38,128 bases of DNA from Aciduliprofundum sp. Lineage in GTDB: Archaea > Thermoplasmatota > Thermoplasmata > Thermoplasmatales > ARK-15. This document shows, piece after piece, positions 8,789-31,048 of this stretch. Position 1 is the stretch's first letter. Each line of letters opens with the position of its first letter. A program made the translations under genes and the position numbers. The stretch covers positions 1 through 38,128 of the forward strand of contig PNIT01000050.1 of NCBI GenBank assembly GCA_002878135.1, given 5' to 3'. The notes below the pieces were generated by a model. The model was not told the origin of the DNA and ran no database searches. It worked only from the letters and a program-made list of their open reading frames with translations.

Positions 8789-9502
8789 ATGCAACCGGCA
8801 CAAATGGCATATGATCGTGCAATTACTGTATTCTCCCCTGAGGGTAGGCTTTATCAGGTGGAGTATGCAAGGGAAGCAGTTAAGATGGGGTCCACCACAA
8901 TAGGTATAAAGTTCAAGGATGGTGTCGCACTAATAATAGACAAGAAGGTGAGGAGTAGGCTGATTGAACCAAGAAGCATAGAAAAGATATACATAATAGA
9001 CGAACACATAGGTGCTGCATCTTCTGGACTTATGGCTGATGCAAGAGTACTCGTGGATTATGCAAGGGTAACAGCCCAGGTGGAGAAGGTAACATATGGT
9101 GAGAAGATAGGTGTTGAACCTCTTGTTAAGAAGATTAGTGACTACGTTCAGCAGTATACACAGTATGGTGGTGTAAGACCTTTTGGAACATCACTTCTGA
9201 TAGCTGGTATAGATGATACGGATGTCTATCTATTTGAAACAGAACCCAGTGGAGCATTCACAGGTTACAAGGCCTCATGCATAGGAAGGGGTAGGGAGGC
9301 AGTAATGGCAATATTTGAAAAGGAGTATCAGGAGAATATGCAGAAGGATGATGCAATAATGCTGGCTCTCAAGGCAATGAAACAGGTGAGCGAGGATCCA
9401 AATCAGCCAATGGTTGTTGAGATAGGTCTTATAACAAGGGGTACAAACTTCAGGATTCTTCCTCAGGAAGAGACAGAGGCCTATATTAAAAAACTGGCTT
9501 AA
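8789..9502 (+). CDS. psmA: Proteasome alpha subunit
   Basis: Begins MAYDRAITVFSPEGRLYQVEYAREAVK. High overall similarity to the Thermoplasma acidophilum alpha subunit as I recall it. GAGGTGA lies 7 nt upstream of the ATG. Confidence 0.95.
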   Translation: MQPAQMAYDRAITVFSPEGRLYQVEYAREAVKMGSTTIGIKFKDGVALIIDKKVRSRLIEPRSIEKIYIIDEHIGAASSGLMADARVLVDYARVTAQVEKVTYGEKIGVEPLVKKISDYVQQYTQYGGVRPFGTSLLIAGIDDTDVYLFETEPSGAFTGYKASCIGRGREAVMAIFEKEYQENMQKDDAIMLALKAMKQVSEDPNQPMVVEIGLITRGTNFRILPQEETEAYIKKLA

Positions 9503-9512
9503 GTGATCCCAC

Positions 9513-10211
9513 ATGGTAAGGATTGAGGATTCCGTTGTTGCCAGGTATGAGGCAAAGGGTCACAGACTGGAGATACTAATAGATCCAAAGCTGATAGATC
9601 TACTAAAATCCGGTAAGCAGGTAAACATAGTTGATTATATGGTTATAGACGAGGTATTCAAGGATGCAAGGAAGGGTGACAAGGTAGGTGAAGAGGTACT
9701 CAAGGAGGTATTTGGAACAACGGATATCAATGAGGTGGCAAGGCAGATAGTCTTAAAGGGTCAGGTACAGCTCACCACAGATCAGAGAAGGAAAATGCTG
9801 GAGGAAAAGAAGAGGCAGATCGTTAACGAGATTGCAAAGAATGCCATAAATCCACAGACAAATGCACCACACCCTCCTCAGAGGATTGAAAAGGCGATAG
9901 AGGAGGCAAAGGTACACATAGATCCAATGAAGAGCGTTGAAGAACAGATACCCATTGTATTGAAGGCTATTAAGGCAATAATCCCCATAAGGATAGAGAA
10001 GATTAAAATGGAGATAAAGGTGGGTGCAGACGGTTACGGTAAAATATATCAGGACCTCGTTAGGATGGGAACACTTGTGAAGGAGGAATGGGGAAATGAT
10101 GGCTCCTGGAAGGCCATCGTTGAAATACCTGCAGGTATGCAGGCGGAATTTCTAGACATGCTGAATAAAAAAACGCACGGAAATATTGAAACAAAGATTG
10201 TGAAAGGGTGA
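9513..10211 (+). CDS. SBDS/Sdo1-family ribosome maturation protein
   Basis: 232 aa. Begins [18 protein letters not shown]. Occupies the conserved position between psmA and rrp4 in the archaeal exosome superoperon. Confidence 0.88.
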
Positions 10212-10218
10212 AAATTTT

Positions 10219-10890
10219 ATGGATAAGATTAGGGAGATAGTTCTACCAGGTGATGAGATAGATCTAATGGGTAATAAACCCGGAAATGGTATATATATTG
10301 ATAATGGAAAGGCTTATGTTGAATATCTTGGCATAAAGACAATCAAGTCAGGATATGTTAATATAATTCCCCTTTCCGGTAGGTATCAGCCACAGAAGGG
10401 AGATAAGGTGATAGGCAAGGTGGTTGACATAATGCCATCCAACTGGGCCGTGGATATAAATGCCCCTTACCTGGCGCCTCTGCACGTTAATGATACCCCT
10501 TGGAAGGTGGACTTCGGTGATACAGGCAAATACCTTAATGTTGGGGATACAATAATAGCGAAGATAATGAGTGTAAATGAGGTAAAACAGGTATGGCTGA
10601 CAATGAAGGAGCCAGGTCTCAGGAAGCTTGAAGGTGGACATATCATAACTGTTTCACCTACTAAGGTACCGAGGATTATAGGGAAAGACGGATCAATGAT
10701 CAAGATGCTAAAGGAGATGACGGACTCCAGGATCTATGTTGGCCAGAATGGTGTTATATGGATAGATGGATCAATAGATGCAATATTGAAGGTTGTAGGT
10801 GCCATAAGGATAATAGAAAAGGAGGCACACATAATAGGTCTTACGGATAGGGTAAAGGATTACCTTTCAAAAAATAAAAAGGGAGATTGA
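10219..10890 (+). CDS. rrp4: Exosome complex RNA-binding protein Rrp4 (S1 plus KH)
   Basis: 223 aa. Contains an S1-like segment ([23 protein letters not shown]) and a KH segment ([17 protein letters not shown]). Operon position fits. Confidence 0.9.
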
Positions 10891-11642
10891 TTAAAATGGG
10901 TGGAATGGCAACAGATATAAAATTGATTGATGAGAATGGAAAAAGGATTGATGGCAGATCCTTCGATGAACTCAGGCCAATTAAGATTGAGGCAGGTATA
11001 CTTGAGAGGGCGGACGGATCTGCATACATAGAATGGGGGAATAACAAGATAATAGCGGCAGTTTATGGCCCCAGGGAGGTATATCCAAAGCATATGCAGG
11101 ATCCAAGCAAGGCCATACTCAGGGCAAGGTATAATATGGCTGCCTTTTCTGTGGATGAAAGGAAAAAGCCAGGACCAGACAGGAGGTCCATAGAGCTTTC
11201 CCTTGTGATATCCAATGCACTCAGCTCAGTGGTATTGCTTGAGCAGTTCCCCAGGACCGCCATAGATGTATTCATTGAGGTTCTTCAGGCCGACGCAGGC
11301 ACAAGGATTGCAGGGCTAACTGCAGCATCTGTGGCACTGGCAGATGCGGGCATACCGATGAAGGATCTTATAGTTGGATGTGCTGCAGGAAAGGTGGATG
11401 ATATAGTTGTACTTGACCTGAACAAGGAGGAGGATAACTATGGCCAGGCCGATCTTCCTGTGGCAATAATACCCAGGACAAAGGAGCTCGTACTATTCCA
11501 GATGGATGGTGACATGACGTTTGAGGAGATTGAGAGGGGTTTAAAGATGGCCATTGATGCCTCCATGAAGGTGTATGAACTACAGAAGGAGGCTCTGAAG
11601 AGAAAATACATAAATCTTGCTCAGGAGGATGAACAGCAATGA
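10887..11642 (+). CDS. rrp41: Exosome complex exonuclease Rrp41 (RNase PH domain)
   Basis: 251 aa. Contains [43 protein letters not shown] and DAGTR. ATGA overlap with rrp4. Confidence 0.92.
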
Positions 11643-12439
11643 GTAAATTTACAGATAATGTAATCTCAGAGATAAAGAGGGATTACATACAGAAGCTCCT
11701 TTCTCAGGGATCCAGGATAGATGGAAGGGGTCAGTATGAATTCAGGAAGATTGAGATCATAAAGAACTTTATACCGAGGGCAGATGGTTCTGCCCTTGTG
11801 AGGCTTGGAAATACCCAGGTACTTGTGGGTGTAAAGATTGAGACAGGGGAACCATTCCCGGATACACCAAACACAGGTGTTCTGAGTACAAACGCTGAGC
11901 TTGTTCCACTTGCATCACCTACATTCGAGGCCGGTCCACCTGGTGAGGAGGCAATAGAACTTGCAAGGGTAGTTGATCGTGGAATAAGGGAGAGTAAGGC
12001 AATAGACCTTGAGAAGCTGGTGATAAAGGAGGGCGAATTGGTCTGGATAGTATTCGTTGATATTCATGTTCTTGATTACGATGGAAATCTGTTCGATGCA
12101 TCAGCCCTAGGATCCATAGTTGCACTTAAGAACTCCATAGTGCCCGCACAGAGATTCGGTCAGGGTGAGAATTTTCCTTTACCCGTTAGGCATTATCCAG
12201 CAACAACCACCTTCGTTAAAATAGGGGATAGGATAGTACTTGACCCGAACCTGGATGAGGAGAACATTGCACATTCCAGGATTACCATAACTACAAATGA
12301 GGAGGGAAAAATAAATGCAATACAGAAGGGACTTGAAGGTACATTCACAAGGGAGGAGGTACTTGAAACCATAAAGATGTCCATAGAATCCGGGAAATAT
12401 TTAAGAAATACATTCATATTAGGGGATGATCAGAAATGA
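11639..12439 (+). CDS. rrp42: Exosome complex component Rrp42 (RNase PH-like)
   Basis: 266 aa. Contains [41 protein letters not shown]. 4-nt overlaps on both sides. Confidence 0.92.
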
Positions 12440-12696
12440 GCAAAAGAACAAAGAAACTCGGGATAGCTGCACGTTTCGGCCCAAGGTATGGTGTAGCTCC
12501 AAAGAAACAGTGGAAGGAGATCATGGAACAGAGGATTGATTCATACATATGCCCAAGATGCGGGCATAAAACCTTGAAAAGGGTAGGTACAGGGATATGG
12601 AGCTGCAGGAGATGCGGTTATACTATGGCAGGAGGAGCATATGTACCATTCGTAAGGAAGGAGATTGTAAGGGAGGGTGAAAATGTCCAGGTTTAG
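12436..12696 (+). CDS. rpl37ae: 50S ribosomal protein L37Ae (eL43)
   Basis: 86 aa. Contains GIAARFGPRYG and the zinc ribbon CPRCGHKTLKR...WSCRRCG. Confidence 0.92.
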   Translation: MSKRTKKLGIAARFGPRYGVAPKKQWKEIMEQRIDSYICPRCGHKTLKRVGTGIWSCRRCGYTMAGGAYVPFVRKEIVREGENVQV

Positions 12697-12820
12697 ATGC
12701 GCCGTATGCGGAAAGATATACGAGGGTGAGATTAATACACCAAACCTTTCCTGCGAATGCGGATCCACCATATTTTACAAGGAAAGACCCAATGTTAAGA
12801 GGGTATTCACCTCAGATTAA
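12683..12820 (+). CDS. rpoP: DNA-directed RNA polymerase subunit P (Rpo12)
   Basis: Not in the ORF track because it is below 60 aa. ATG at 12683 to TAA at 12818-12820 gives 45 aa: MSRFRCAVCGKIYEGEINTPNLSCECGSTIFYKERPNVKRVFTSD. It has a C-x2-C...C-x-C zinc ribbon and the YKER tail typical of RpoP. Overlaps the rpl37ae end by 14 nt, its conserved position. Confidence 0.8.
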   Translation: MSRFRCAVCGKIYEGEINTPNLSCECGSTIFYKERPNVKRVFTSD

Positions 12821-12825
12821 GAAAA

Positions 12826-12855
12826 CTTTTTATTAAGATTGCCTTAATCTTTTTA
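12826..12855 (+). terminator. Putative terminator of the exosome/rpl37ae/rpoP operon
   Basis: Two T5 runs (12827-12831 and 12850-12854) bracket a 6-bp hairpin AAGATT-gcctt-AATCTT (12835-12851) just after the rpoP stop. Archaeal termination uses oligo-T. Confidence 0.4.
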
Positions 12856-12907
12856 GACCTGACAACAGTTTGCAGGAATTGTACCATAAATTACAAATAT
12901 AGAAAGG

Positions 12908-15900
12908 ATGGTGAAAATAAATATGGGCTTTAGGCCGGGATTGACTCAGGAAACAAAAAGGGACATTGTAGTATTAATCATAATGATATCCATAGTTCTT
13001 CTTGGTTTATTCCTAAGGACATACTATGCGATCGGCCCATCAGTAGAAAATAATTTTGCTGTTTCTGGTGGTGCCGACACATTTTACCATGAGAGGGTAA
13101 TTGATTACATAGTTGCCACGGGACACCAGCTACTCTGGGATCCTATGCTGAATTATCCAGTGGGCTTCCCGGACCCAAGGCCACCATTCTTTGAGTGGGC
13201 CGTTATTGGGATGGCCTACCTCTATCTTCCTTTCGTGGGAAGCATGCATAATGCCTTGGGTTATTCACTTGTTATGATAACCGCAGTTTTCGGCGCTTTA
13301 ATAGCCATACCCATGTATCTCCTTGGCAAAGAGGCATTCAACAGAAGGGTGGGTATAATATCCGCATTCCTTATAGCCACAAGCGCCTCAAATATGATGA
13401 GGAGTGTGGCCTCCTGGGGAGGCTATGATGACGTAATATTATTCTTTGCAATATGGGTTTTCTATTTCTTCCTCAAGGCATTAAAGAGTGTAAAAAAATC
13501 CGTATGGATAGAGAATTATTTTAGTTTGAAGGGTTGGTCAAACGGAACAAAGAAATTTTTCCTGGAAAATAAGATATCCACAGTCTATGCAGCCCTTGCG
13601 GGTATAAGCTTCGGCACAATAGGTGCAATGTGGCAGGGTTTTGTGTATGTAGAGGTGATAATATTAATTTATCTCGTAATACAGATATTCTATAACAGGT
13701 TCAGGAATCAAAGCTCATTCCACATATTCTGGATCACATTAATATTCATATTATTCTCATTCCCAGTAGCATTTCCCTTCTATCTACTTGACAACACAAT
13801 TACGCCCTGGTTTAATACTCCTCTCTATCTGGCCCTGTTCGTTGTATTCCTCATAATATTCATAGAGATGACATCTAGATGGCCCTGGGTACTTATATAT
13901 TCAATCACTGCAGCAGTCATAGGAGCATTGGTTGTACTAGGCCAGATTTTCTTCCCCTCCATAATGAGGTACATATATACAGGTGAGGGTTATTTCGTTA
14001 AGAGTGCCCTTTATTCAACCATAGCGGAGGCTCAGGCACCAACACTTGGCCAGATAATAATGAACGTTGGTGTGGGTGTATTCTTCGTCTTCGTTGCTGG
14101 CCTTATATTCATGCTATATGAAATAAGGAAGAACAGAAATGAGTACTATCTCTTCTTTGTAATCTTCTCCATAGTTTCAGTCTATATGGCCTTTTCAGCA
14201 GCCAGGTTCATATTCAACGCATCACCTGGTTTCGTTATACCCGCAGCCTATATGCTTGACATTATAATAGAAAAAATTAATATCAAGGAGATAGGAAATC
14301 TAATAAGATCCATATCCTGGAAGAATGCCTTCAAGAAGAGGGGTCCATGGGTTAGGATTGCTGCAATCGCTGTTGTTGCATTTCTTATAGTTTTTCCAAA
14401 CATGTGGGGTGCTGTGGACGCTGCAATACCATATAATAATAAAACAACTTATGACAGGCAGATCTACAATGTGATGCCATCATACTTCAGACCCCAGAAC
14501 TATACACCCCCCTGGTATCTAGGTGCATACGGTATACAGCTTGATACAAACACCACCGACCCCTGGCAGGGTGCATTTGCATGGCTTGCAAAACAGGATT
14601 CAAATCAGGCACCGGAGTACAGGCCAGGATTCCTCAGCTGGTGGGACTATGGATTTCAGGATGTACAGCAGGGTTTACATCCAGCTGTTGCAGACAACTT
14701 CCAGAATGGATACCAGGTGGCGGGTCAATTTATTACTGCACAGAATGAAAGCGAGGGAATTGCACTGCTAATATCAAGGATACTGGATGCATCCATAAAC
14801 AACGCCACATATGGTAATGAGGTAAAAAATATCCTCATACAGTATCTTGGAGAGCAGGAGGAACAGAAGATAGTTGATTACTACACGAACCTCTCCAAGA
14901 ATCCCTCAGCGTACATAAATCAAATACTCAAAAACCCAGACTATTATGGGCTCTATTCAAAGAATATTACTCCACAGAACGCAAAATATGTTATGATCAA
15001 GGCTGATCTTGCAAACAAATATAGTGAGAACACACTTGTTAACCTTTACCTCATGCTTGAAAGGGTAACAGGTTATTCCATTGATTATTTTGCAACGGAT
15101 TACAGGCTATTCCCATTCTCCGGCATGAACACGGGTATATTCTATGCACCTGCCTACCTGGCGGACAGGAGAGCTTACATAGTGAGTGGCCAGATAATAC
15201 CATATGATTTCTATAACATTACAGCAGTAGGTTCAAATGGTCTCACATATCCACTCAATAAAATACCTGCAAATGTACAGATCGTAAGCTATAATATCAC
15301 ATACAATCCAATGTTCTTCAATACAATGCTTTACAGGGCATTTGTAGGTTATTCTGGCCTCAACATTGGTATGGGACCATACATACCCGGGATCTCATCC
15401 CAGATGAGCTACTATCCTGTAATGTTCGCATGGAACCTTACACATTTTGAGGTTGTTTATTCAATTTCATTCTGGAACCCCTACAAGGATTACCAGAACC
15501 ATACAAATGCCTGGAAACCAGTTCCACTCCAGGAGGCCTATTATCTCCAAAAAAAGAATAATGGTACGGTTGTACTTATACCTCCTGCAAGGCAGATCCT
15601 GCCTCAGGACGTGGTTATATTGAAATTTTATCCTGGGGCAATAGTTGAAGGAAGGGTAACATTACCTGATGGTCAGCCACTTTCAAATGTTCTTGTGACA
15701 CTCTATGATCAGTATGGAATACCCCATACATACACCAGAACAAACTCATCAGGATATTATAAACTATATGCTGTGGCAGGTAACGATACGATACAGATCT
15801 CCACCGGTGGAAATTTCAATGAACTTTTCCTGAATGAAAAAACAATACTTTCATCTGAGAATATATATGTATCAGATGCACAGGCATCAAGGATCGTAAC

Positions 15901-18900
15901 AGGCATAAACCCAGACGGACTACCAAATTATTACATAGAAAAAAATTTTGTAATAAATTCCTCATCCCTTGATGGCATTGTATATTTTGAGAATTCTGGC
16001 AATAGAACATTGTTGAATTCTGGCACAATATACCTTGTTAACAGTACGTATGGTCTGAATTACTCTGCTGCAATTCAAAGTAACGGTTATTACTCATTCA
16101 ATAACATAGCACCGCAAGAGTACAATGTATATCTTTACTCAAATGGCACTTTTACATATCTAAGGAGCATAACGATCAACCAGAATCAGAACCTAACTCA
16201 GGATCTCCAGCTTTATGGAGATGTCATAAAGGGTATAGTTATTTACAACAATGGTACGCCAGCAATAGGTATGTCCGTATTCATAAATGGGCCTATGAGT
16301 TATATTTTAAAGACAGATAAAAATGGATCCTATTTTGCATACGTAATTCCTGGTAAATATTCAATCAGTGTTGAAAAGACCGGATATTATACGCCCATAA
16401 AGTACGTGACATTCTCCTCCTGGAATTCAACATCAACAAACAACATTGAACTACTTCCTTCCTATTCAACACTTGTTAATGTTTACCTGGATGGTAAGCC
16501 TGTTGAGGGTGCCTTGGTAAGGTTTATGGATGAATTCACATTCTCAAATACACAGATAGGAATAACAGATAAAAATGGACAATATAAATTCAACCTGCCC
16601 GAGGATTATTATTCAGTATATGTGGACTATTTCTACGATAACAAGCACTATGTTTACATAGGAAATTATACGCCATATTACAACAGCACCTTTAATATAT
16701 CACTTAGCCAGGGCGTTATTTTTTCAGGGTACGTTTATTATGGAAATGTACCCCTGGCAGGGGCAGGTGTTATGCTCTTCCAGGGTAAGAACTTCCTCAG
16801 GGTTTACACAAATGGTAGTGGATACTTCAGTGCCTATGTACCAAGGGGATCCTATTCCGTTGGTGTTGTGGGATACAATGCAACCACCTCACAGCCATAC
16901 GCCTACTATACCTCAATAGTAATAACTGGTACCTTTAATATGAACATATACCTACAGAATACAAACAAGCTTAGTGGTCAGGTGATCTGGAATGGTACCA
17001 TTCTTAAAAATGCTGTTGTTTTCCTAAAATCTGGAGACACATACTATTATGAGACAAACATAGCCTCAGACGGGAGTTTCCATTTTTATACAACTGGTGG
17101 CACCTATTCCCTTGATGCATTTGCTTATAGTTTCAAATTTAATGGATATACAATTAAAAATAATAATGCAACAATATATATGAATGAGAAAGAATGCAGG
17201 GTAACTGGAAAGGTGGTATATCCCCGGGAATATAATGGGGAAATTTACCTTATCTTCTCCTCTAGCGCAGGTAACTTCATGGTGAGGGTAGTGAATGGAA
17301 GCTACAGTGCATTATTGCCATTCGGTTACTATAATGTGAGCGTTTCAGCATCAAACGTTCAGGTAACCCTATCACCTTCAAGCTTTGCCATTAATGCAGG
17401 ACAGTTAAGATTGAATATGGATTTCAAGGTAAATATGAATGCAAAGGTTACATTGATTCCTGGATCTGGATATATATACTGGTTTGATAAAAATGGAAAC
17501 CTGGTGAATTCAGGAAACAATGTGTCACTGCCGCTAGGTATCTATACATATTACGAATTCAATGGAAACCTTTCATCTATAGGGTCCATCAATTTGACTC
17601 AGAATACTGTACAGAATGTACCTTTGGTACAGGGCTATTATGTAAAGATTGAAATTATGAACAGCACACAGACATTTAATCTACTGATTAATTATGGCGG
17701 TTTGAAGATTATAAAGCCGGTGAAGCTTGGAACTACATTGCTCCTCCCGCCTGGATTTTATAAATTCAGCATTTCACTTGTCTCCGGTAATACAATATAT
17801 TTAGCGAATGAGGATTCTTACATTGATTCAGATTCAACTGTTTACCTTAATGTAACTGAAAAACCATACATGGCCACACTCAAGGGTTTTGTTTCATACG
17901 GTAAAACATATCTAAGTTTCTCTACGCTCTATCTATACGGGAATGGATTTTCAATTACAATACCCTCCAATTCAGATGGGTATTACTCCTCCGCTATACC
18001 ACTTGGAAAATATACAGTTTATTCATATTATGGTAATTTCTTATCATTCCTTGGGAACATATCCGTATCAAACAACTCCACATACTGGTACAATGTTTCA
18101 ATGGAAAAGGGATTTTCCCTGAATTTCCTTTTCCTTTGCGCCAATTCAACCTACAATTCAAGATTAAACTTGATTTCATCCTTTGGAAATATAACATTTG
18201 ATGTTAACGATGGATTGCTCCATGCGGTCCTACCATCAGGGAGGTATACATTGAGTGCCTCATATGAGAATATTGAATATGGTCAAAAGGTAAAGTACAA
18301 TTTAAATTACACAATAAACGTGAATGAAAGCAGAGATTATACCATTTATTTCAGCAGGTTAAACCTCGATGACATAAAGATATCAACACTTACACCTGTA
18401 CTCAACGGTAGTGTGGGAAGTAAGCTCCATTACACCATATCAATAACAAATACAGGTAACAGACCTGAGAATATCACCCTGGAGGCGCTTGGTGCATGGA
18501 ATATTACATTCAAGAATAAGAATATATATGTAATCCCGGGCCAGACCGTTCTGGATACCATAACACTTGTTGTTTCTGATAAGGCTAACTATGGTATGAA
18601 CACAATTACCATAAGGGGTGTTTACCAGGGTTCACTTTACAGGGAGACTACCATATACGTTAATGTGTCAGAATACCATAACACAACATTTTCATGGGGG
18701 GTAATGTATGCCTCTGGGAATTCACTTTACATTAATTTGACCATCCTTAATAATGGTAATGTTGTTGAGAATTATACACTCTCGGTTATTAATTCACTTG
18801 AACTAAAATCAATAGGCTGGTCCTCTTCAGTACCCAATTATGAGAGAATAGACCCATGGTCATCAAAAACAATAACCATTGTACTCACGGCGAATAAAGA

Positions 18901-19138
18901 AAGACCGGCACCAGTATTCCAGATCATCGTATCCGCAACATCCTCCAATAATGAATATCTAGCAGAGAAATCAATAGGTATAGGAAATATAAATGCAGTT
19001 TCCACAGTTATTTCAACAACAAATGTTACTTACAAGATACCATCCTATAATACATTCTTCCTTGAATTCACCATTGTATCATCAATAATAATATTTGCTC
19101 TCCTGTTCTACATAATTTGGAGGAGGCTGAAGAAATGA
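12908..19138 (+). CDS. aglB: Giant oligosaccharyltransferase AglB/STT3 fused to about 10-11 beta-sandwich repeats, CARDB-like domains and a C-terminal membrane anchor
   Basis: Single 2076-aa ORF with about 13 N-terminal hydrophobic segments. Catalytic-core motifs present: GGADTFYHER (13070-13096), GYDD, TIAE (the TIXE motif, 14018-14029) and WWDYG (14639-14653). About 80-aa CarboxypepD_reg-like repeats run from about 15620 to 18352. CARDB/NEW3-like modules span about 18365-18937. A terminal TM helix plus WRRLKK lies at about 19055-19135. Confidence 0.85.
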   Translation: MVKINMGFRPGLTQETKRDIVVLIIMISIVLLGLFLRTYYAIGPSVENNFAVSGGADTFYHERVIDYIVATGHQLLWDPMLNYPVGFPDPRPPFFEWAVIGMAYLYLPFVGSMHNALGYSLVMITAVFGALIAIPMYLLGKEAFNRRVGIISAFLIATSASNMMRSVASWGGYDDVILFFAIWVFYFFLKALKSVKKSVWIENYFSLKGWSNGTKKFFLENKISTVYAALAGISFGTIGAMWQGFVYVEVIILIYLVIQIFYNRFRNQSSFHIFWITLIFILFSFPVAFPFYLLDNTITPWFNTPLYLALFVVFLIIFIEMTSRWPWVLIYSITAAVIGALVVLGQIFFPSIMRYIYTGEGYFVKSALYSTIAEAQAPTLGQIIMNVGVGVFFVFVAGLIFMLYEIRKNRNEYYLFFVIFSIVSVYMAFSAARFIFNASPGFVIPAAYMLDIIIEKINIKEIGNLIRSISWKNAFKKRGPWVRIAAIAVVAFLIVFPNMWGAVDAAIPYNNKTTYDRQIYNVMPSYFRPQNYTPPWYLGAYGIQLDTNTTDPWQGAFAWLAKQDSNQAPEYRPGFLSWWDYGFQDVQQGLHPAVADNFQNGYQVAGQFITAQNESEGIALLISRILDASINNATYGNEVKNILIQYLGEQEEQKIVDYYTNLSKNPSAYINQILKNPDYYGLYSKNITPQNAKYVMIKADLANKYSENTLVNLYLMLERVTGYSIDYFATDYRLFPFSGMNTGIFYAPAYLADRRAYIVSGQIIPYDFYNITAVGSNGLTYPLNKIPANVQIVSYNITYNPMFFNTMLYRAFVGYSGLNIGMGPYIPGISSQMSYYPVMFAWNLTHFEVVYSISFWNPYKDYQNHTNAWKPVPLQEAYYLQKKNNGTVVLIPPARQILPQDVVILKFYPGAIVEGRVTLPDGQPLSNVLVTLYDQYGIPHTYTRTNSSGYYKLYAVAGNDTIQISTGGNFNELFLNEKTILSSENIYVSDAQASRIVTGINPDGLPNYYIEKNFVINSSSLDGIVYFENSGNRTLLNSGTIYLVNSTYGLNYSAAIQSNGYYSFNNIAPQEYNVYLYSNGTFTYLRSITINQNQNLTQDLQLYGDVIKGIVIYNNGTPAIGMSVFINGPMSYILKTDKNGSYFAYVIPGKYSISVEKTGYYTPIKYVTFSSWNSTSTNNIELLPSYSTLVNVYLDGKPVEGALVRFMDEFTFSNTQIGITDKNGQYKFNLPEDYYSVYVDYFYDNKHYVYIGNYTPYYNSTFNISLSQGVIFSGYVYYGNVPLAGAGVMLFQGKNFLRVYTNGSGYFSAYVPRGSYSVGVVGYNATTSQPYAYYTSIVITGTFNMNIYLQNTNKLSGQVIWNGTILKNAVVFLKSGDTYYYETNIASDGSFHFYTTGGTYSLDAFAYSFKFNGYTIKNNNATIYMNEKECRVTGKVVYPREYNGEIYLIFSSSAGNFMVRVVNGSYSALLPFGYYNVSVSASNVQVTLSPSSFAINAGQLRLNMDFKVNMNAKVTLIPGSGYIYWFDKNGNLVNSGNNVSLPLGIYTYYEFNGNLSSIGSINLTQNTVQNVPLVQGYYVKIEIMNSTQTFNLLINYGGLKIIKPVKLGTTLLLPPGFYKFSISLVSGNTIYLANEDSYIDSDSTVYLNVTEKPYMATLKGFVSYGKTYLSFSTLYLYGNGFSITIPSNSDGYYSSAIPLGKYTVYSYYGNFLSFLGNISVSNNSTYWYNVSMEKGFSLNFLFLCANSTYNSRLNLISSFGNITFDVNDGLLHAVLPSGRYTLSASYENIEYGQKVKYNLNYTINVNESRDYTIYFSRLNLDDIKISTLTPVLNGSVGSKLHYTISITNTGNRPENITLEALGAWNITFKNKNIYVIPGQTVLDTITLVVSDKANYGMNTITIRGVYQGSLYRETTIYVNVSEYHNTTFSWGVMYASGNSLYINLTILNNGNVVENYTLSVINSLELKSIGWSSSVPNYERIDPWSSKTITIVLTANKERPAPVFQIIVSATSSNNEYLAEKSIGIGNINAVSTVISTTNVTYKIPSYNTFFLEFTIVSSIIIFALLFYIIWRRLKK

Positions 19139-19893
19139 AAAGGATTGCAATTTTTCTTGCCATGATCATAATCATTTTCTCACTCTTCCCATTTAGCCAG
19201 GCAAGGGGCCTCACTGTGGACATCTATGGACCGGCCACCGTTGGTACAAACGGTACCTATGAATATACAATTGTGATAAACGGCAATTTTGATGGATACG
19301 GCTACAACCTTTTCCTCACGGGTAGTAATATGAGCGGTGGTACTACAGAGGAATTGACAGGTCTTTCTTACACAACGAATACCTTCAAGGTAAACATTAC
19401 ATTTCCTTCAAGGCCCGAGACAGTATACATCTATGTCATGGGTATAGGTATTGTTAATGGAAGTCCTGAAAAGACCACATCCATAAATTATATCCAGGTC
19501 AATGTTGTAAAATCTGTGCCAATTACACTTACACTCAAAAACACTGAACCCTATGAAATAAAGAATATAAGCATTTCATTTTTCCTCAACGGTAGATTCA
19601 TTGGTACCTCCAATGTTTCCTCAATGGGACCAAATTCAACTGTGAACGTCACCTACAATTATATAGGAACATTTGAGAATGGCGTCAATGTATTGAGCGC
19701 AAGGTTAAACACAAATCTTGTTAAATTCTCATCAGGCTCAAACTACACAACACTTTATTTCTACTATGGTACACCGCCTAACTATGACTGGCTATGGTAT
19801 CTCCTTGCAGGGATTACGCTCTTCACCCTGGCAATCATCTACTTCTATTCATCGGGTAAAAAAAGGCCTGGAGCTCCCAAGTGGAAAAAATAG
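19135..19893 (+). CDS. Type-I membrane glycoprotein (signal peptide, CARDB-like beta-sandwich, C-terminal TM anchor), translationally coupled to aglB
   Basis: Preferred start is ATG 19135 (MKRIAIFLAMIIIIFSLFPFSQA), which forms an ATGA overlap with the aglB stop. GGAGGAGG lies at 19119-19126 upstream. About 9-10 N-x-S/T sequons. C-terminal helix LWYLLAGITLFTLAIIYFY is followed by a KKRPGAPKWKK tail. The track ORF begins at 19117. Confidence 0.7.
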   Translation: MKRIAIFLAMIIIIFSLFPFSQARGLTVDIYGPATVGTNGTYEYTIVINGNFDGYGYNLFLTGSNMSGGTTEELTGLSYTTNTFKVNITFPSRPETVYIYVMGIGIVNGSPEKTTSINYIQVNVVKSVPITLTLKNTEPYEIKNISISFFLNGRFIGTSNVSSMGPNSTVNVTYNYIGTFENGVNVLSARLNTNLVKFSSGSNYTTLYFYYGTPPNYDWLWYLLAGITLFTLAIIYFYSSGKKRPGAPKWKK

Positions 19894-20667
19894 TCAATTC
19901 TTCTTTTGCATCTCTATTGCCTCTTCCAAATCTATTTCTCCCTTTACTACCCTTCTTGCAAGTTCCCTGGAGATTGTAACAAGATTGTTACTGGCTATCC
20001 TGCTTTTCCTCTGAACCTCAGATATCTCACCCCTCCTTGCCCTTATTTCCATCCTTCCCTTTACGGGTTTTCCCCTCTTCATCGCTATTTTCTTTGCTGC
20101 CTCTGTGTTCCTATTTTTTATGGATGTGGTCCCATACTCATCAACAATCTCAATGGGATAAAGCCCAAAAAGAATGTTGATTATTCTATTCCTATTAGGT
20201 TCATCACCCTTCCCTATCCTTAAAACCACATTCCTTGAACCATAACCCCTGACTATCTCCTCAATTTTTCTCCTTAGATCGTATGTATCCGTTAGCTCAA
20301 GCTCCTCCAGAAATATACCATCCCCATAAACAGCAACACCTACCCTCATTCCGGGATCAATTCCTATGTGGATCTCATGGAATTTTTCCTTACCATAAAG
20401 ACGAGGTATTACAGACCTCACCGCCGATTGTGCTTCCACAACAATTACATATCTTTTGAAAATTCCTGGGGAATCCGTAAGGACTATCAGGTCCTTATCA
20501 TCTTCCCCTGGAAAAATCTCAATATAATCCAGCTTTCTTCTCTTTATTTCCTCTATTACCTGGTGGTATAGCCTTATATCTTTTATGTAAACTCCCACCA
20601 TCATTAAATATTTGTTATTTTCTAATATATTTAAATCTTTCTTTGACATATGCTGTAAAGAGGACAT
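19894..20667 (-). CDS. Predicted RNase-H-fold nuclease (RuvC/YqgF-like, COG2433/DUF460-like)
   Basis: Core segment HIGIDPGMRVGVAVYGDG...IVDEYGTTS resembles the RuvC/YqgF-type acidic motifs. C-terminal region is helical. The start is uncertain: ATG 20667 overlaps the upstream gene by 37 nt, while ATG 20604 (MMVGVYIKD) avoids the overlap. Confidence 0.5.
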   Translation of the reverse strand: MSSLQHMSKKDLNILENNKYLMMVGVYIKDIRLYHQVIEEIKRRKLDYIEIFPGEDDKDLIVLTDSPGIFKRYVIVVEAQSAVRSVIPRLYGKEKFHEIHIGIDPGMRVGVAVYGDGIFLEELELTDTYDLRRKIEEIVRGYGSRNVVLRIGKGDEPNRNRIINILFGLYPIEIVDEYGTTSIKNRNTEAAKKIAMKRGKPVKGRMEIRARRGEISEVQRKSRIASNNLVTISRELARRVVKGEIDLEEAIEMQKKN

Positions 20668-24110: not shown

Positions 24111-25301
24111 TTAATTTGTTACCCTACCAGTCTTTTCAACCTTTAACCATCTCCTCTCCCTTTTCAACAACTCAAGCATAAGTGAATATAATGATATAAC
24201 AGAGGAGATAAACCAGTAAATATATGCTATAGGGAGATATGCAAGTATCCTGTAATTCTTGATTGAAATTAATATGATTGATATCAAATTCAGAACAAAT
24301 AGGAATAGACCGAAATATATTAAAAATATTAATTGTGTGCTGGTAATACTGTGCATTATTACGCCTATGGCAAGAAGAATTAAGCTTATGAACCAGAGGG
24401 ATGAGATTAGTGGTGCAGATATTACCAGTAAGGAATCTAAGTGTTTTTTATTCCTTATCTCCTTTTTACTGTGAAAAAGAACCTGATGGTATCCCCTGTA
24501 CCATCTGGTCCTCTGTTTTACAAATTCACCCATCTTTGAGGGTGTTTCCTGACCACATCTTACGCTGGTTGAATATGCGGTCTTCTTGTTCTTAATGTTC
24601 ATTCTTAGTGATATCTCAAGATCCTCAGTTAGATACCTCTCATCCCATCCATTCAGCTCTTCAAGTACCTCCCTCCTAAAGTACTGGTTGGATCCACCCA
24701 AGGGCAGGAAAAGGTCAAAAGCATTCCTGCCAAGGAGTGCAAGCTTTATCAGCCCCTGATCGATGAATCCTATCCTCGTAATGATATTTTCCTTTGAGTT
24801 CACTGAATAATTCTCACCCTGAAGTGCATCTAGATTCCTTGAATGCATCTCTATAAGGGCCCTGTATATGGTATCCTTTTCAAGGATTGAATCAGCATCG
24901 AATGTTGCTATTATATTGCCCCTTGAAATTTTAAGTGCATAATTCAAAGCAGAGGGCTTTCCATTGCTTATATCCCTGTGGTAGCATTTAATCCTTTTAT
25001 CCTTTTTCTCATATTCCTTGCATATCTCCAGTGTTCTGTCACTGGATCCATCCTCAACAACGATTACTTCAATATTCTTATAGGTTTGATTAAGGATGGA
25101 ATCAAGGCATCTCCCAATCACCTTTTCCTCATTCTTTGCTGGCACTATGACTGAGACTAGATCATTAAACTCAGGATCATCTATATCCTCTTTATTTTTT
25201 AATTTTATAACACCATAAAATATTATGGGAAGCTGATAGATGCTGTATATCATACCAATGAGCATGAGAATGATTGCCACTGTGATTATTAAATCAAACA
25301 T
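24111..25301 (-). CDS. Membrane-integrated family-2 glycosyltransferase of the processive synthase type (NodC/PgaC/HAS/cellulose-synthase-like)
   Basis: 396 aa with 1 N-terminal and about 4 C-terminal TM helices. Contains VIVPAKNEE...VVEDGSSD, DAD (24891-24899), TED (24621-24629) and QRTRW (24501-24515). Together these form the D,D,D,Q(R/Q)xRW signature. Confidence 0.8.
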   Translation of the reverse strand: MFDLIITVAIILMLIGMIYSIYQLPIIFYGVIKLKNKEDIDDPEFNDLVSVIVPAKNEEKVIGRCLDSILNQTYKNIEVIVVEDGSSDRTLEICKEYEKKDKRIKCYHRDISNGKPSALNYALKISRGNIIATFDADSILEKDTIYRALIEMHSRNLDALQGENYSVNSKENIITRIGFIDQGLIKLALLGRNAFDLFLPLGGSNQYFRREVLEELNGWDERYLTEDLEISLRMNIKNKKTAYSTSVRCGQETPSKMGEFVKQRTRWYRGYHQVLFHSKKEIRNKKHLDSLLVISAPLISSLWFISLILLAIGVIMHSITSTQLIFLIYFGLFLFVLNLISIILISIKNYRILAYLPIAYIYWFISSVISLYSLMLELLKRERRWLKVEKTGRVTN

Positions 25302-25328: not shown

Positions 25329-26711
25329 TTAATTTTTTTCGTAAACAAAGAGTGCATAATTTCCAATAATTTTTACTGGAACAAAACTTGATGGTAAACT
25401 TTCTATGCCATACCAGCCATTCCTGTACCACCATACGGTATAAATTGTATAATTAAGGCTATAATAATATTCACATTTATTCAGGAATAATGTATAATTT
25501 TCATCCGTGTTTATAACTTTATCTATTTTTATTCCGGCCTCGTATGCAAATGAGACCATATAAAGCATGGAGATAACGAGTGAATCATTTCCCCTTACAT
25601 ATGAGAATAATTTAACAATTATTTTTGAATCATTTAAGGGTACAGTGCTCTGAAGGAATGATGTACTAACTATCTCATTTATATTTGTGCTTTTTGTTAG
25701 GCCATTGTAAAAATATGGTGAGGGATAATAATTATCCATCATAATATATGATGATGAGATCAAAAGGATCAAAACAAGAAAGAGAGAGAAAATTTTGATG
25801 TACCTTTTTGGTTCTTTTATGAATAATATTGATATGACTGATAGTTCAATAAGATACCTTGAGAAGAATGAAAATACAGCCAGGGAAGAGAAGATGAATG
25901 TCCCCACTATTGGAATCTTAAGATCCATATCTTTTCTATAATCATAATTCCTTAAAAGTGGTATAAATATTACAAATGGAGCAAAAAGAAGTATGGATAA
26001 TGAAGTATATACAATCATATCATAAATTAAATTTCCTGAGAAAAAGAATGAGAGCGTGAAATTAATTAATTCATTTCCTCTGGCACCGGTTATCTCAGGT
26101 GTAAATGCTGCAGAGATTATTAATATGAATGTTAAAGCGATCAGTGTTAAGGGTGCTGGAAGGTATTTTCTGTTCCTTAAGGTGAGATACAAAAACCAGA
26201 AAAACTCAAGGGGTATTATGGCCGGGTCAGTGAATCCTGAGACTATCAACAATAGAAGTATGCATAAGATATTTTTTCTATCAGCATCTCTAAATACGAA
26301 TGTAAAGAGAAATATGGAGAATGCAAGTATATTCCTCTGTAAACTCCAATCAAGGATCAATGATTGAAAACTAAAGAAGGCGAATATGGATATATAGAAT
26401 GAATATCTGTTTTGAACACCATACTCTGAAAATGCAAAAAGTGATAGAATAAAAATACCAGATACAATTGAATCAAGCAATTTAATTGTTAAAAGTGGAT
26501 TATTGAGCATTGAATTTATTCCAGAGGCTATTAGATAGTAAATAAAACCAACTGAAAAATAATCCAGTGGATTTGCTTTAGTGTATAACATGGGCACATA
26601 ATAGCCCATTTGATCAAAACCAATTGCAGAATAAGGGAATAAAAGCTCAAGAAATAATCTAAATGAAAAACCAATTAAAAACAACAGTATCAGTTTTTTT
26701 ATTAATCTCAT
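25329..26711 (-). CDS. Uncharacterised polytopic membrane protein (about 10-11 TM helices plus a roughly 130-aa extracytoplasmic C-terminal domain)
   Basis: 460 aa, extremely hydrophobic and F/I/L-rich. The C-terminal Y/N-rich soluble region carries sequons (NDS twice, NYT twice). It lies 27 nt upstream of the GT2 gene on the same strand. I recognise no family motif. A GT-C or Wzy-like role is only a guess. Confidence 0.55.
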   Translation of the reverse strand: MRLIKKLILLFLIGFSFRLFLELLFPYSAIGFDQMGYYVPMLYTKANPLDYFSVGFIYYLIASGINSMLNNPLLTIKLLDSIVSGIFILSLFAFSEYGVQNRYSFYISIFAFFSFQSLILDWSLQRNILAFSIFLFTFVFRDADRKNILCILLLLIVSGFTDPAIIPLEFFWFLYLTLRNRKYLPAPLTLIALTFILIISAAFTPEITGARGNELINFTLSFFFSGNLIYDMIVYTSLSILLFAPFVIFIPLLRNYDYRKDMDLKIPIVGTFIFSSLAVFSFFSRYLIELSVISILFIKEPKRYIKIFSLFLVLILLISSSYIMMDNYYPSPYFYNGLTKSTNINEIVSTSFLQSTVPLNDSKIIVKLFSYVRGNDSLVISMLYMVSFAYEAGIKIDKVINTDENYTLFLNKCEYYYSLNYTIYTVWWYRNGWYGIESLPSSFVPVKIIGNYALFVYEKN

Positions 26712-28063: not shown

Positions 28064-31048
28064 TTGAAATCATTTAGTGCAAAAAGTGCAATGGCTTTAG
28101 TGATCGTTTCAGTGATTCTAGTGGGTACTATTTTAGTTCCACTGATTCCAGCGCAGGGTACACAAAGTGGGAATGTGAGTTTGGTGGTGATGTATAAGGA
28201 TACAGAGACCGGGGATCTTGACTTCCTTCAGGGTCTTAATGTAAATCTGATGGATTATTCTGGAAATATTATTTCCTCATCCATATCCAATCCCGTAGTA
28301 AATTTTGGGAATGTGCAGATAGGTAATTACATATTGAGCGTCTCACCCCAGAAGATTGGAACATACGTTTATGGTGGCGCATTCATACCAATTACCGTTA
28401 ATACGACTGGGGTGAATGTTACAACAATAACTGTGGCAAGGACCGCAATAAATAAGACCGTTAACCTGGTGGTAAAGAATTCTGGCCTGCCTGCCTCTGG
28501 ATACAACGTTTATGCATATGATTACTATAATCTTCTTTTCTTCTCAGGTGTGACAGGTTCCGCAGGAAATATTACATTCAATGCTACAAAGGGACCCTTC
28601 ATACTTGAACTGAGTACATCAAGTGGAGGAGGTCTAAAGAATTATTATCTTCAGTTAAACGCACCTTTCACAGGTTCCATAGACATTTCAACATTCAAGC
28701 ACATATTTGGTATTGTAAAGGATTCAGCTACAGGATCCATAATATATAACACAATCTATGTTAATATATTCCAGAATTCATCACTGTGGAATACATTAAC
28801 ATTTAACAATGGTGTTTTCAATTTCTATCTGGGCGGTTCAAATTATAGTATTGTTCTCACTGCGGATGGTTATTCCATACAGAACCTCTATTTCAATGGC
28901 TCATATCCCATCACGGTATTCCTGAATAAGGTTAAGAATTATTACAATTACAGCTACACATTCTCCACTGATTTCAAATATATCTACATGAACTGTACAT
29001 TTTTATTGAATAATAAAACAGTACTAAGGGTTCTTCCATACAGTAATACAGACATACTATACTATCAGATGAAACTCAATGGATTCAATTCCACATTCCT
29101 GAACAAATTTTTCCTGAATTCAATAAGAAACTATTCAGGTTCATACATTACACTGGGTAATTATATCTATTCACTGAAGGGATCATCTGTAACACCCTTC
29201 ACTATAGATTACAGCGGTTTCACTGTACAATTCAGCGCTGTTTATTATAATTCATCTGTAAATACCAGTTCCCTTATCTCCTCCATGGGTTACCTCCCAG
29301 TATATCTGAATGTTATGCAGAACAACCAACTTGGTGCATACAACATATACAATTACACCGTTTCCATTCCATCTAATTATGAACTTTCAAACAATGTCAT
29401 AGGTGCAACCACTTCTGGATACATAAATACAATTAGTGTAACGAATGCCACTGTGGGCCAGGTGGAGCTTGACTTTAAGGAAAGACAAAAACCACAGATT
29501 ATACTTACTCAGGGTACGTTCGGTATATACTGGAAAGGTATGACACCTGGCAACTACATAATAAACTCAAGCGCAAGCAACTTCACTGTTGTTGTAAGGG
29601 CCAATCTTAATGTTTATTTCAATGCAAGCAACGCGGTAAGGGATATGGTAAGACAGCAGTATTCATGGAAGGAGATGAAATTCCAGTGGAATATGGATGG
29701 CAATATAAAGAGTGGTACTGGACTGGCAAATGTTAGTGAGATTCTGAGCCCGGGCATACATACATTGAATCTCACTGTTACAGATGTTGGAAATAACACT
29801 AATTCTACAATAATAAAGGTTTATTCAGATGGTGCATATCCAGATGCTTCATCCTTGATTAAATATACAATAGGACCTGAAAACATAGTATCCTGGAATC
29901 TTTATTATGATAATTCAACTCTCTTCTACACATACAATGGTAATACTACAAAGTACACATTATCTGGAAAGAGCATTGAACTTGGACCGGTCACTGTACT
30001 GCAGAACAAGCAGCTTTCCCTTAATGCTTACAACCTGAAGGATACACTGAATGGAATCATACCATCGAAGGAGAATGTGAATGTTATATGGAACATATCA
30101 GGTTCAAGGTATCTTGGTAATTATGTGAACTATACATTCACATATCCAACAAGGAATGGTTATGATTGGGTGAATGTCACCTACAGTGATCTCGTTGGAA
30201 ATAATATCACTGTTGCCCTGAAGGTATTTGTAAAGGATACAGTAAAACCTGTGCCAGTGATTGTCTTCCAGGGAAAGAATAACACCACCGTAAACCAGAT
30301 TTTTGAGAATCAACCTGTTGTATTTAATGGTACAGGTTCATACGATCCACAGAACGGTACCATATCCTCATACTCCTGGACCATTGAGAACTCCACTGGG
30401 AAGGTGCAGAGTGCAAACACAACTTTTGTTATATTAAATGGCAATCTGAACGAAAGCAAGCTCACAGTTAAATTCACCACATATGGTACATTTTACATAA
30501 TACTGAATGTTACAGATGCTTCTGGAAACTACAATACTCTGAATAAGACACTCAGGGTCTCCCCCGTAGCACCTGACCTTGTACTTGTGAATTTCACATG
30601 GAAGGGAAATCTCACCGAGGGTAGCCAGACAACATTCTATGTGAATGTTTCAAATACGGGAAATGCACAGGCAAGCGTCTATTACCTTGAATTCTATGTA
30701 AATGGTAAGCTAGAAGGAAATGTTAGCTATAGTAATCTTGCAGTGAACAAGACAACAATGCTCATATACAACTGGACACCACCATCATCTGGTAATTACA
30801 CAATAAAGTTTGTGGTATACTCCCCACAGGAGCCAAAAATTTACATTGGTGACAATGCCCAATCAAAGGTGGTAAGCGTTCAGCAGGCAGCATGGAAATT
30901 ACCGGCCATAATAATAGGAACCATAGCTGTGATAGTAGTGGTAGCAATAGTGATCTGGAGACTAAGGACAAAGGGCTTCAGAAAATTCGAAAAGAAAACA
31001 AAGACTGAACAAAAAGAGGAAAAGGGTGGATTACTCCACAAAAAATAA
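28064..31048 (+). CDS. Large cell-surface glycoprotein (signal peptide, beta-sandwich and PKD domains, CARDB domain, C-terminal TM anchor)
   Basis: 994 aa with a TTG start and an SD-like motif upstream. N-terminus is MKSFSAKSAMALVIVSVILVGTILVPLIPAQG. PKD-like segments include FQWNMDG...LNLTVTDVGNNTNS and FNGTGSYDPQNGTISSYSWTI...ILNVTDASGN. A CARDB-like segment is FYVNVSNTGNAQASVYYLEFYVNG. The TM helix LPAIIIGTIAVIVVVAIVIW is followed by a K/E-rich tail. About 47 N-x-S/T sequons by eye. Confidence 0.8.
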   Translation: MKSFSAKSAMALVIVSVILVGTILVPLIPAQGTQSGNVSLVVMYKDTETGDLDFLQGLNVNLMDYSGNIISSSISNPVVNFGNVQIGNYILSVSPQKIGTYVYGGAFIPITVNTTGVNVTTITVARTAINKTVNLVVKNSGLPASGYNVYAYDYYNLLFFSGVTGSAGNITFNATKGPFILELSTSSGGGLKNYYLQLNAPFTGSIDISTFKHIFGIVKDSATGSIIYNTIYVNIFQNSSLWNTLTFNNGVFNFYLGGSNYSIVLTADGYSIQNLYFNGSYPITVFLNKVKNYYNYSYTFSTDFKYIYMNCTFLLNNKTVLRVLPYSNTDILYYQMKLNGFNSTFLNKFFLNSIRNYSGSYITLGNYIYSLKGSSVTPFTIDYSGFTVQFSAVYYNSSVNTSSLISSMGYLPVYLNVMQNNQLGAYNIYNYTVSIPSNYELSNNVIGATTSGYINTISVTNATVGQVELDFKERQKPQIILTQGTFGIYWKGMTPGNYIINSSASNFTVVVRANLNVYFNASNAVRDMVRQQYSWKEMKFQWNMDGNIKSGTGLANVSEILSPGIHTLNLTVTDVGNNTNSTIIKVYSDGAYPDASSLIKYTIGPENIVSWNLYYDNSTLFYTYNGNTTKYTLSGKSIELGPVTVLQNKQLSLNAYNLKDTLNGIIPSKENVNVIWNISGSRYLGNYVNYTFTYPTRNGYDWVNVTYSDLVGNNITVALKVFVKDTVKPVPVIVFQGKNNTTVNQIFENQPVVFNGTGSYDPQNGTISSYSWTIENSTGKVQSANTTFVILNGNLNESKLTVKFTTYGTFYIILNVTDASGNYNTLNKTLRVSPVAPDLVLVNFTWKGNLTEGSQTTFYVNVSNTGNAQASVYYLEFYVNGKLEGNVSYSNLAVNKTTMLIYNWTPPSSGNYTIKFVVYSPQEPKIYIGDNAQSKVVSVQQAAWKLPAIIIGTIAVIVVVAIVIWRLRTKGFRKFEKKTKTEQKEEKGGLLHKK

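Follow-up and report, generated by a model that had tools for sequence, protein, structure and literature searches.

Why would an archaeal N-glycosylation enzyme be about twice its usual size? To our knowledge, archaeal AglB is regarded as a single-subunit oligosaccharyltransferase (OST) of ~600–1,050 residues, and it is enzymes of this size that all structural and genetic studies have dealt with. The window analyzed here, which is the whole stretch of 38,128 nucleotides (nt) of contig PNIT01000050.1 from Aciduliprofundum sp., contains an AglB-type gene at 12908..19138 on the plus strand. As had been read in an earlier note on this DNA, the gene is a single open reading frame (ORF) of 2,076 amino acids (aa) plus stop, without interruption. 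The protein is a long-form AglB of an uncultured Thermoplasmata archaeon, a form which is standard across the phylum Thermoplasmatota. In addition, it is followed directly by a small gene for a CARDB-domain protein, which does not appear in the earlier note; the pairing of AglB with this partner is kept across the phylum.

The first point to settle is whether the long frame is real, as an assembly error or frameshift could fuse two genes. A genome scan with one genome per species gave 571 encoding stretches, and the locus analysis covers the best 79 of these. A single open frame of 2,031–2,239 codons is present at 62 of the 79 loci. At 15 of the other 17 the gene is truncated by a contig end, and the last two are interrupted late, at ~codon 1,590 and ~codon 1,717, far from position 900. 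At none of the 79 related loci does the frame stop around residue 900 and leave the repeats to a gene of their own. An artefactual fusion is ruled out by this analysis, with its 62 independent loci that each have one frame of 2,031 codons or more, and its probability is negligible; the fusion claimed in the earlier note is genuine.

The long form is widespread. A protein search gave 370 relatives, the best 120 of which are almost all 2,020–2,200 aa long with a query coverage of 93–100%. Full-length homologues share 29–77% identity with the window protein, and the named sources include Aciduliprofundum sp. MAR08-339, Oxyplasma meridianum, Methanomassiliicoccales and metagenome-assembled genomes (MAGs) of Thermoplasmatales. 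The best 79 loci cover Thermoplasmatales (Ferroplasma, Cuniculiplasma, I-plasma), DHVE2, Methanomassiliicoccales and Methanomethylophilaceae; they come from records titled or placed as Thermoplasmatota, a few being labelled only "archaeon" or misnamed. The same architecture of ~2,030–2,200 aa occurs in DHVE2/Aciduliprofundum, Methanomassiliicoccales, Methanomethylophilaceae and many uncultured Thermoplasmatota. When the catalytic part was searched against 1.84 billion cluster representatives (50% identity), 288 clusters were obtained at E ≤1e-30, and ~90 of the best 150 listed are 2,000–2,775 aa long. In all, at least 100 clusters of this length are public. Public copies are annotated as STT3 or as carboxypeptidase-regulatory-like proteins.

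Thermoplasmatales are acidophilic and partly wall-less, and their membrane proteins are heavily N-glycosylated. The arrangement had been linked to Thermoplasmatales-type cells, some of which lack a wall, and by implication taken as rare. Neither idea holds: as the form is phylum-wide, a link to wall-less cells is unsupported, and hundreds of copies are present in public databases. The window protein is ~31–33% identical to proteins of Thermoplasmatales proper and ~37–38% identical to those of DHVE2, so it is no closer to the former; its nearest genome locus is 72% identical.

Two groups of relatives differ in length. Some are 2,300–2,775 aa long (P0246, P0247, P0254, P0299–P0303, P0327, P0328) and have a catalytic match split in two, which implies an insertion of ~150–250 residues in the N-terminal half besides the arm. 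Others, of ~1,100–1,290 aa (P0340, P0344, P0346, P0349, P0352, P0354–P0356, P0362, P0365, P0366), match only query residues ~15–640; these possibly make up a sister subfamily in which the arm is not complete, and could date arm acquisition.

The assignment of the N-terminal ~900 aa to AglB/STT3 (family GT66, GT-C fold), proposed earlier, is supported both by profile and by fold. Pfam STT3 matches aa 56–445 (E 1.3e-10, 41.9 bits against a cut-off of 24.5), and a profile of 37 family members finds AfAglB-L of Archaeoglobus fulgidus in the PDB over positions 23–498 (E 8.9e-28). The best NCBIfam model, TIGR04154 (archaeo_STT3, archaeosortase A system-associated), covers aa 24–714 with 206 bits, yet its cut-off is 450. 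An AlphaFold model of aa 1–1100 (mean predicted local distance difference test score, pLDDT, 86; predicted template-modelling score, pTM, 0.78) has AfAglB-L (7e9s) as its best Foldseek match (E 1.2e-25, target-normalized TM-score 0.68), followed by eukaryotic STT3A/B and then by bacterial PglB. The model superposes on AfAglB-L, which is described with 13 membrane helices; the earlier count was ~13, and hydropathy gives 11–12 hydrophobic segments in aa 1–505. The globular domain that follows (pLDDT mostly 80–96) matches the C-terminal domains of AfAglB-S1/S2 (3vgp, 3vu0) by sequence, and is the best-conserved region of the protein among 12 homologues.

The catalytic motifs were followed in sets of 12 and 37 aligned homologues. 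D57 is invariant, within SGG(S/A)D in 37/37 aligned sequences, and aligns with D47 of AfAglB-L (GGND(47)PWYY). T371, I372 and E374 of TIxE, and the whole of WWDYG, are invariant in both sets. The motifs GYDD, TIAE, WWDYG and WRRLKK are all present where they had been reported; only GGADTFYHER was misplaced by 3 nt, as it starts at 13067 rather than 13070.

The second acidic motif varies within the family. In the 37-sequence alignment it is D-(W/H)-D in DHVE2 and Methanomassiliicoccales, G-Y-D in the clade of the window protein, L-F-D in another Thermoplasmatales group, and R-M-H in the Cuniculiplasma/Oxyplasma group, where the segment is without any Asp. The GYD segment aligns with the D161-H-H segment of AfAglB-L. 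D174 is the residue kept by most of the family, with His instead in the Cuniculiplasma/Oxyplasma group, and Gly172 occupies the position that is Asp in the D-x-D relatives; the first Asp of the AfAglB-L/PglB pair is missing from the window protein. With D174, the GYDD read earlier still fits the "xxD" form of the motif. As an "xxD" motif is reported for active methanococcal AglBs (PMC5131992), this variation may be read as family-typical and not as loss of function.

The same variability would be expected if the STT3 part were inactive in some clades and served only as the membrane anchor of a surface protein. However, D57, E374 of TIxE and WWDYG are invariant, the "xxD" form is normal in active enzymes and AfAglB-L itself has D-H-H, and the catalytic part is better conserved than the arm, all of which make a pseudo-enzyme very improbable. 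By the chemistry of the family, residues 1–905 would transfer a lipid-linked glycan to the Asn of N-x-S/T at the outer face of the membrane.

The Ser/Thr pocket is placed only by analogy. DK/MI motifs were originally located by three-dimensional structures, and the order of strand, loop and helix around them (PMC3703281; PMC5131992) was used for placement here. In the family alignment, a conserved NTGIFYAPA block follows the strand IDYFATDY, where the motif helix is expected, and N-T-G-I-F-Y-A-P (aa 741–748) is a candidate that would give an Ile-type pocket. A DK motif at V604/Q607, drawn from the alignment with AfAglB-S2, was abandoned because the motif is on a later helix (PMC3703281).

Past residue 905 come 13 beta-sandwich domains, and the chain ends in a single helix and a basic tail. 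In the AlphaFold model of aa 881–2076 (mean pLDDT 85), the only exception to an all-beta fold is the terminal helix at aa 2047–2075. The domains were delimited from the strands of this model and compared all-against-all by hhalign. D1–D11 belong to one repeat family (probability 84–99% for most pairs). D12 and D13 match each other (98%) but not D1–D11 (≤30%), and match the CARDB domain of the partner protein at 65% and 50%, respectively. These 11 + 2 domains correspond to the 10–11 repeats and two further modules read earlier. Pfam CarboxypepD_reg (PF13620) is found in seven stretches (E 2.9e-36, 124 bits against a cut-off of 32.3). Pfam CARDB (PF07705) has no match in the AglB protein, and D12–D13 reach no Pfam cut-off, with weak sub-threshold matches to FixG_C (21.4 bits, cut-off 25.6) and choice-of-anchor T. 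The description of D12–D13 as CARDB/NEW3-like is therefore weakly supported.

The terminal membrane anchor proposed together with the beta-sandwich array is borne out by a hydropathy peak at aa 2052–2070, by the modelled helix and by WRRLKK at 2071–2076. A C-terminal hydrophobic stretch with an R/K-rich end is present in 12/12 homologues. No sorting motif is conserved before this helix, the preceding residues differing across the 12 homologues. An archaeosortase-type (PGF-CTERM) signal was rejected for this reason, together with the low TIGR04154 score.

The partner gene encodes a 252-aa bitopic protein, and its ATG (19135) overlaps the AglB stop as ATGA. The protein consists of an N-terminal signal or transmembrane segment, two beta domains of which the second is CARDB, and a C-terminal transmembrane helix with a tail ending in RPGAPKWKK. 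By tblastn, the partner lies directly 3' of the AglB homologue at 50 of the 79 loci; at many of the others the available sequence stops short of this position. Pfam CARDB is matched by 30/31 partner members, and the C-terminal end PKW(K/R)K is kept in Thermoplasmatales and DHVE2. The family comprises at least 106 protein clusters, nearly all of 242–259 aa, which are annotated only as "hypothetical" or "CARDB domain-containing"; a 99%-identical protein is present in an NCBI MAG. A search of the PDB with the partner profile found no OST subunit, but only stand-alone CARDB structures and weak antibody-fragment matches. The latter were read as noise, and identity of the partner with a known OST subunit was rejected.

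Conservation is uneven along the AglB protein (Table 1). Across 12 phylum-spanning sequences, most of the 13 domains differ in length by no more than a few residues, whereas D6 and D9 vary by up to ~25. D1 is as conserved as the catalytic core and therefore behaves like part of the enzyme. In D2–D13, lengths are kept but sequence is not, which is spacer-like and suggests selection on geometry rather than on surface.

Overall, we consider it likely that the arm of the long-form AglB, paired with the partner, is a glycosylated arch or spacer of fixed length, which is a structural accessory rather than a catalytic element. The arm lies outside the cell, and the chain re-enters the membrane by the C-terminal helix. 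According to the positive-inside rule the basic tail would be in the cytoplasm, which would give the arm a membrane tether at each end. Like the peripheral P1 unit of AfAglB-L, D1 probably packs on the globular domain, and D2–D13 would act as the N-glycosylated arch or spacer. The membrane-proximal CARDB-like end (D12–D13) would pair with the partner protein, and arm and partner together would frame the site of glycosylation permanently on the outside of the cell, without a part in catalysis.

Several points weigh against this reading. The pTM of the arm model is 0.45 and the inter-domain geometry is uncertain, so we infer both the arch and the docking of D1 on the catalytic domain. In Foldseek the arm matches only unspecific strings of Ig/MG domains (alpha-2-macroglobulins, ciliary proteins, TIE) at TM-scores of ~0.1, and the structure search therefore gives no functional clue. 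Contact between the partner and the arm is proposed because the two genes are adjacent and overlap by ATGA and because their domains are weakly similar (hhalign 50–65%). Also, neither DxxK nor MxxI is found by sequence at the expected place.

The tight pairing of the two genes could have another meaning: arm and CARDB partner might do the work of the non-catalytic luminal subunits of eukaryotic OST and affect which sites are glycosylated, for example by holding or presenting nascent secreted chains, or by docking the enzyme beside the Sec translocon. A conserved and translationally coupled AglB–partner pair would fit such a role, as would the conservation of D1 at the level of the catalytic core and the PKWKK tail of the partner, which is presumably cytoplasmic and suggests a specific intracellular contact. 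However, sequence similarity to ribophorins, OST48, Swp1 or Ost3/6 is absent, the PDB profile search led to stand-alone CARDB structures, and the poor sequence conservation of D2–D13 argues against many specific binding surfaces. A role as accessory OST subunits is thus rather improbable.

Sequons bear on a further explanation. There are 56 N-x-S/T sequons in the whole protein. Relative to composition-preserving shuffles, 41 are observed in aa 901–2045 where 22 ± 4 are expected, and 12 in aa 501–900 where 3.6 ± 1.7 are expected; the estimate of ~50 extracellular sequons made earlier holds if the catalytic globular domain is counted (41 + 12). Arm sequons are enriched about two-fold in 12/12 homologues tested. 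Positions kept in >60% of 81 sequences are N613, N959, N1045, N1173, N1302 and two more in the globular domain.

Such enrichment, with several conserved positions, would also be expected if the arm were a major glycoprotein of a glycocalyx or S-layer-like coat; the fusion would then tie the glycosylation machine to the coat, and the enzyme would be its own main substrate. The arm is built like a 994-aa surface glycoprotein with 47 sequons encoded further downstream. In Picrophilus torridus, the STT3 subunit PTO0786, which may be a long form, was detected by mass spectrometry among culture-supernatant proteins (PMC8345856); in that case the long form would also be shown to be expressed. However, the architecture is phylum-wide and does not track envelope type, as it occurs both in lineages reported to have an S-layer (Aciduliprofundum, Picrophilus) and in wall-less ones. 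Moreover, the strict number and lengths of the domains are more in keeping with a component of a defined machine, a coat would probably require more copies than an enzyme reaches, and a lattice-forming signature is absent. A coat function of the arm is unlikely.

The arch or spacer reading can be carried further, to an obligatory AglB–partner hetero-complex across Thermoplasmatota in which the 13-domain arm, anchored at both ends, is a molecular ruler or cage, setting the spacing between membrane and glycoprotein layer or enclosing nascent chains. We hold this to be doubtful. If true, the complex would be a prokaryotic, hard-wired counterpart of the eukaryotic OST accessory subunits or of the NOMO spacer, and the "single-subunit" archaeal OST would not be the rule throughout one phylum.

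Among known systems, AfAglB-L (PDB 3waj, 3wak, 5gmy, 7e9s) is the closest in plan. It shares with the window protein the membrane and globular folds and the motif set (first acidic, second acidic, TIXE, WWDYG), and it also ends in peripheral beta units past the core (CC, IS and P1 units; PMC3703281). However, sequence identity is only ~15%, the deposited chain has 875 residues, and the published description gives one peripheral unit and no C-terminal membrane helix, whereas the window protein has ~1,170 more residues, for the 13 beta-sandwiches and the additional membrane anchor. AfAglB-L is not known to have a paired CARDB partner gene. The AglBs of Methanococcus, Haloferax volcanii, Sulfolobus acidocaldarius and Pyrococcus furiosus belong to the same enzyme family, and the "xxD" and Ile-type pocket variants of the methanococcal enzymes (PMC5131992) resemble the G-Y-D motif and the candidate pocket of the window protein. 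Characterized AglBs are 754–1,054 aa long (PMC5131992), and none of them has, like the window protein, an arm of many domains leading back to the membrane.

Outside the OSTs, the PDB profile search matches NOMO2 best (E 1.2e-15). NOMO (nodal modulator), a subunit of the BOS complex (PDB 9c7v chain B), consists like the arm of a string of CarboxypepD_reg-type beta-sandwiches, one C-terminal membrane helix and a short tail, and both resemble the Bacillus anthracis TIE protein 6fwv (PMC8327139). NOMO is a type I membrane protein forming a ~27 nm rod of Ig-like beads whose length sets membrane spacing (PMC8327139), and this rod may serve as an analogy for the spacer role. NOMO is nevertheless a free-standing eukaryotic protein of the endoplasmic reticulum, with a signal peptide, ~12 Ig-like domains, a free distal end and no enzyme fusion, and it works with NCLN and TMEM147. 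The AglB array belongs to an STT3 enzyme, of which it makes up the C-terminal portion, and falls outside the NOMO family; the likeness is at the repeat level only. As this domain family is very widespread, common descent of the two arrays is unproven.

In eukaryotic OST (STT3, ribophorin I, ribophorin II/Swp1, OST48/Wbp1), STT3 is ringed on the non-cytoplasmic side by beta-rich domains anchored by single helices, a similar layout. Eukaryotic OST has a conserved sequon close to WWDYG, the counterpart of which is here the conserved N613-E-S adjoining the WWDYG region. In the window system, unlike in eukaryotes, the accessory parts belong to the enzyme chain itself or to a single small CARDB protein, and a sequence relation between them and the eukaryotic subunits was not detected.

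Table 1. Features of the AglB locus in the window. Identity values compare the window protein with the eight most divergent of the 12 phylum-spanning sequences.
Feature	Positions	Strand	Basis	Identity
Long-form AglB, whole gene	12908..19138	+	ORF reading; full-length homologues; open frames at related loci	
Polytopic GT-C/STT3-type membrane domain (aa 1–505)	12908..14422	+	Pfam, profile and Foldseek matches	36%
First acidic motif GGADTFYHER (aa 54–63; D57)	13067..13096	+	motif position and family alignment	
Second acidic motif G172-Y-D174-D175 ("xxD" form)	13421..13432	+	family alignment, AfAglB-L alignment	
TIAE (aa 371–374), TIXE motif of external loop 5	14018..14029	+	alignments	
Extracellular catalytic globular domain (aa 506–905): helix-rich CC-like unit and mixed beta region	14423..15622	+	AlphaFold, sequence matches	43–51%
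WWDYG (aa 578–582)	14639..14653	+	12- and 37-sequence alignments	
N741-T-G-I744-F-Y-A-P748, candidate Ile-type (MI-like) Ser/Thr-pocket motif	15128..15151	+	analogy	
D1–D11 (aa 906–1818), CarboxypepD_reg/transthyretin-like beta-sandwiches	15623..18361	+	Pfam, AlphaFold, hhalign	
D12–D13 (aa 1819–2028), CARDB-like beta-sandwiches	18362..18991	+	hhalign	
Short linker, C-terminal transmembrane helix, basic tail WRRLKK (aa 2029–2076; tail 2071–2076)	18992..19135	+	hydropathy, AlphaFold	
D1				48%
D2–D13				20–30%
Terminal helix				17%
Partner gene, 252-aa bitopic protein	19135..19893	+	ORF sequence	
Exosome/proteasome superoperon	8789..12820	+		
45-aa zinc-ribbon ORF	12683..12820	+		
A+T-rich 87-nt gap before AglB start	12821..12907	+	direct reading	
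257-aa convergent ORF	19894..20667	-		
GT2 glycosyltransferase	24111..25301	-		
460-aa polytopic membrane protein	25329..26711	-		
994-aa surface protein	28064..31048	+		

Upstream of AglB lies an exosome/proteasome superoperon (proteasome alpha, SBDS, Rrp4, Rrp41, Rrp42, L37ae and an RpoP-like gene), whose linkage to AglB is limited to the six or seven nearest loci. Its last member is a 45-aa zinc-ribbon ORF (MSRFRCAVCGKIYEGE...CECGSTIFYKERP...), which shares 14 nt with the 3' end of the L37ae gene and is below the length limit of the default ORF list; it resembles RNA polymerase subunit P but has no Pfam match at E 1e-4. The gap between this ORF and the AglB start probably holds the promoter of the AglB gene itself. 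Downstream genes are for DNA repair and housekeeping, with one gene for a family 2 glycosyltransferase (GT2) 5 kb away. An agl gene cluster was rejected on this content: the superoperon on one side, housekeeping genes on the other, and a single GT2 gene at that distance.

Several of the neighbouring genes deserve mention. The convergent 257-aa ORF, with an "IGIDPG" RuvC/RNase-H-like motif, abuts the partner stop and is found by tblastn at the same place beside the AglB–partner pair in 30 related loci; it has no Pfam or NCBIfam match. The GT2 gene adjoins that of the 460-aa polytopic membrane protein, which has ~8 hydrophobic segments and likewise no Pfam or NCBIfam match, and the two could be a glycan-assembly pair. 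The 994-aa surface protein has a signal segment, PKD and CARDB domains, a C-terminal transmembrane helix and a basic tail, and is anchored in the same style as the AglB arm and the partner.

Full-text searching of the accessible literature found no description of a long-form AglB; phylogenomic AglB surveys may mention it. Thermoplasmatales genome papers merely list "AglB", without size or arm (PMC5155288, PMC3750248, PMC10354927). Long-form sequences have long been public and annotated, and we regard the window gene as a further representative of a large group of variant AglBs that is as yet unstudied. What is apparently new is the conserved CARDB partner gene and the description of a fixed, phylum-wide architecture for the long AglB.

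In Thermoplasmatota, which cover acidophiles as well as the Methanomassiliicoccales with their gut methanogens, AglB is about twice as large as usual: it has an arm of constantly 13 domains and is anchored a second time, and its gene is accompanied by that of a dedicated partner. Should the arm do no more than stabilize the enzyme, the finding is a catalogue entry. If it shapes the envelope or selects substrates, the long form would be a tractable, genetically encoded example of accessory domains joined to an oligosaccharyltransferase, and a target for cryo-electron microscopy and cryo-electron tomography in the cultivable Thermoplasma, Cuniculiplasma and Aciduliprofundum.

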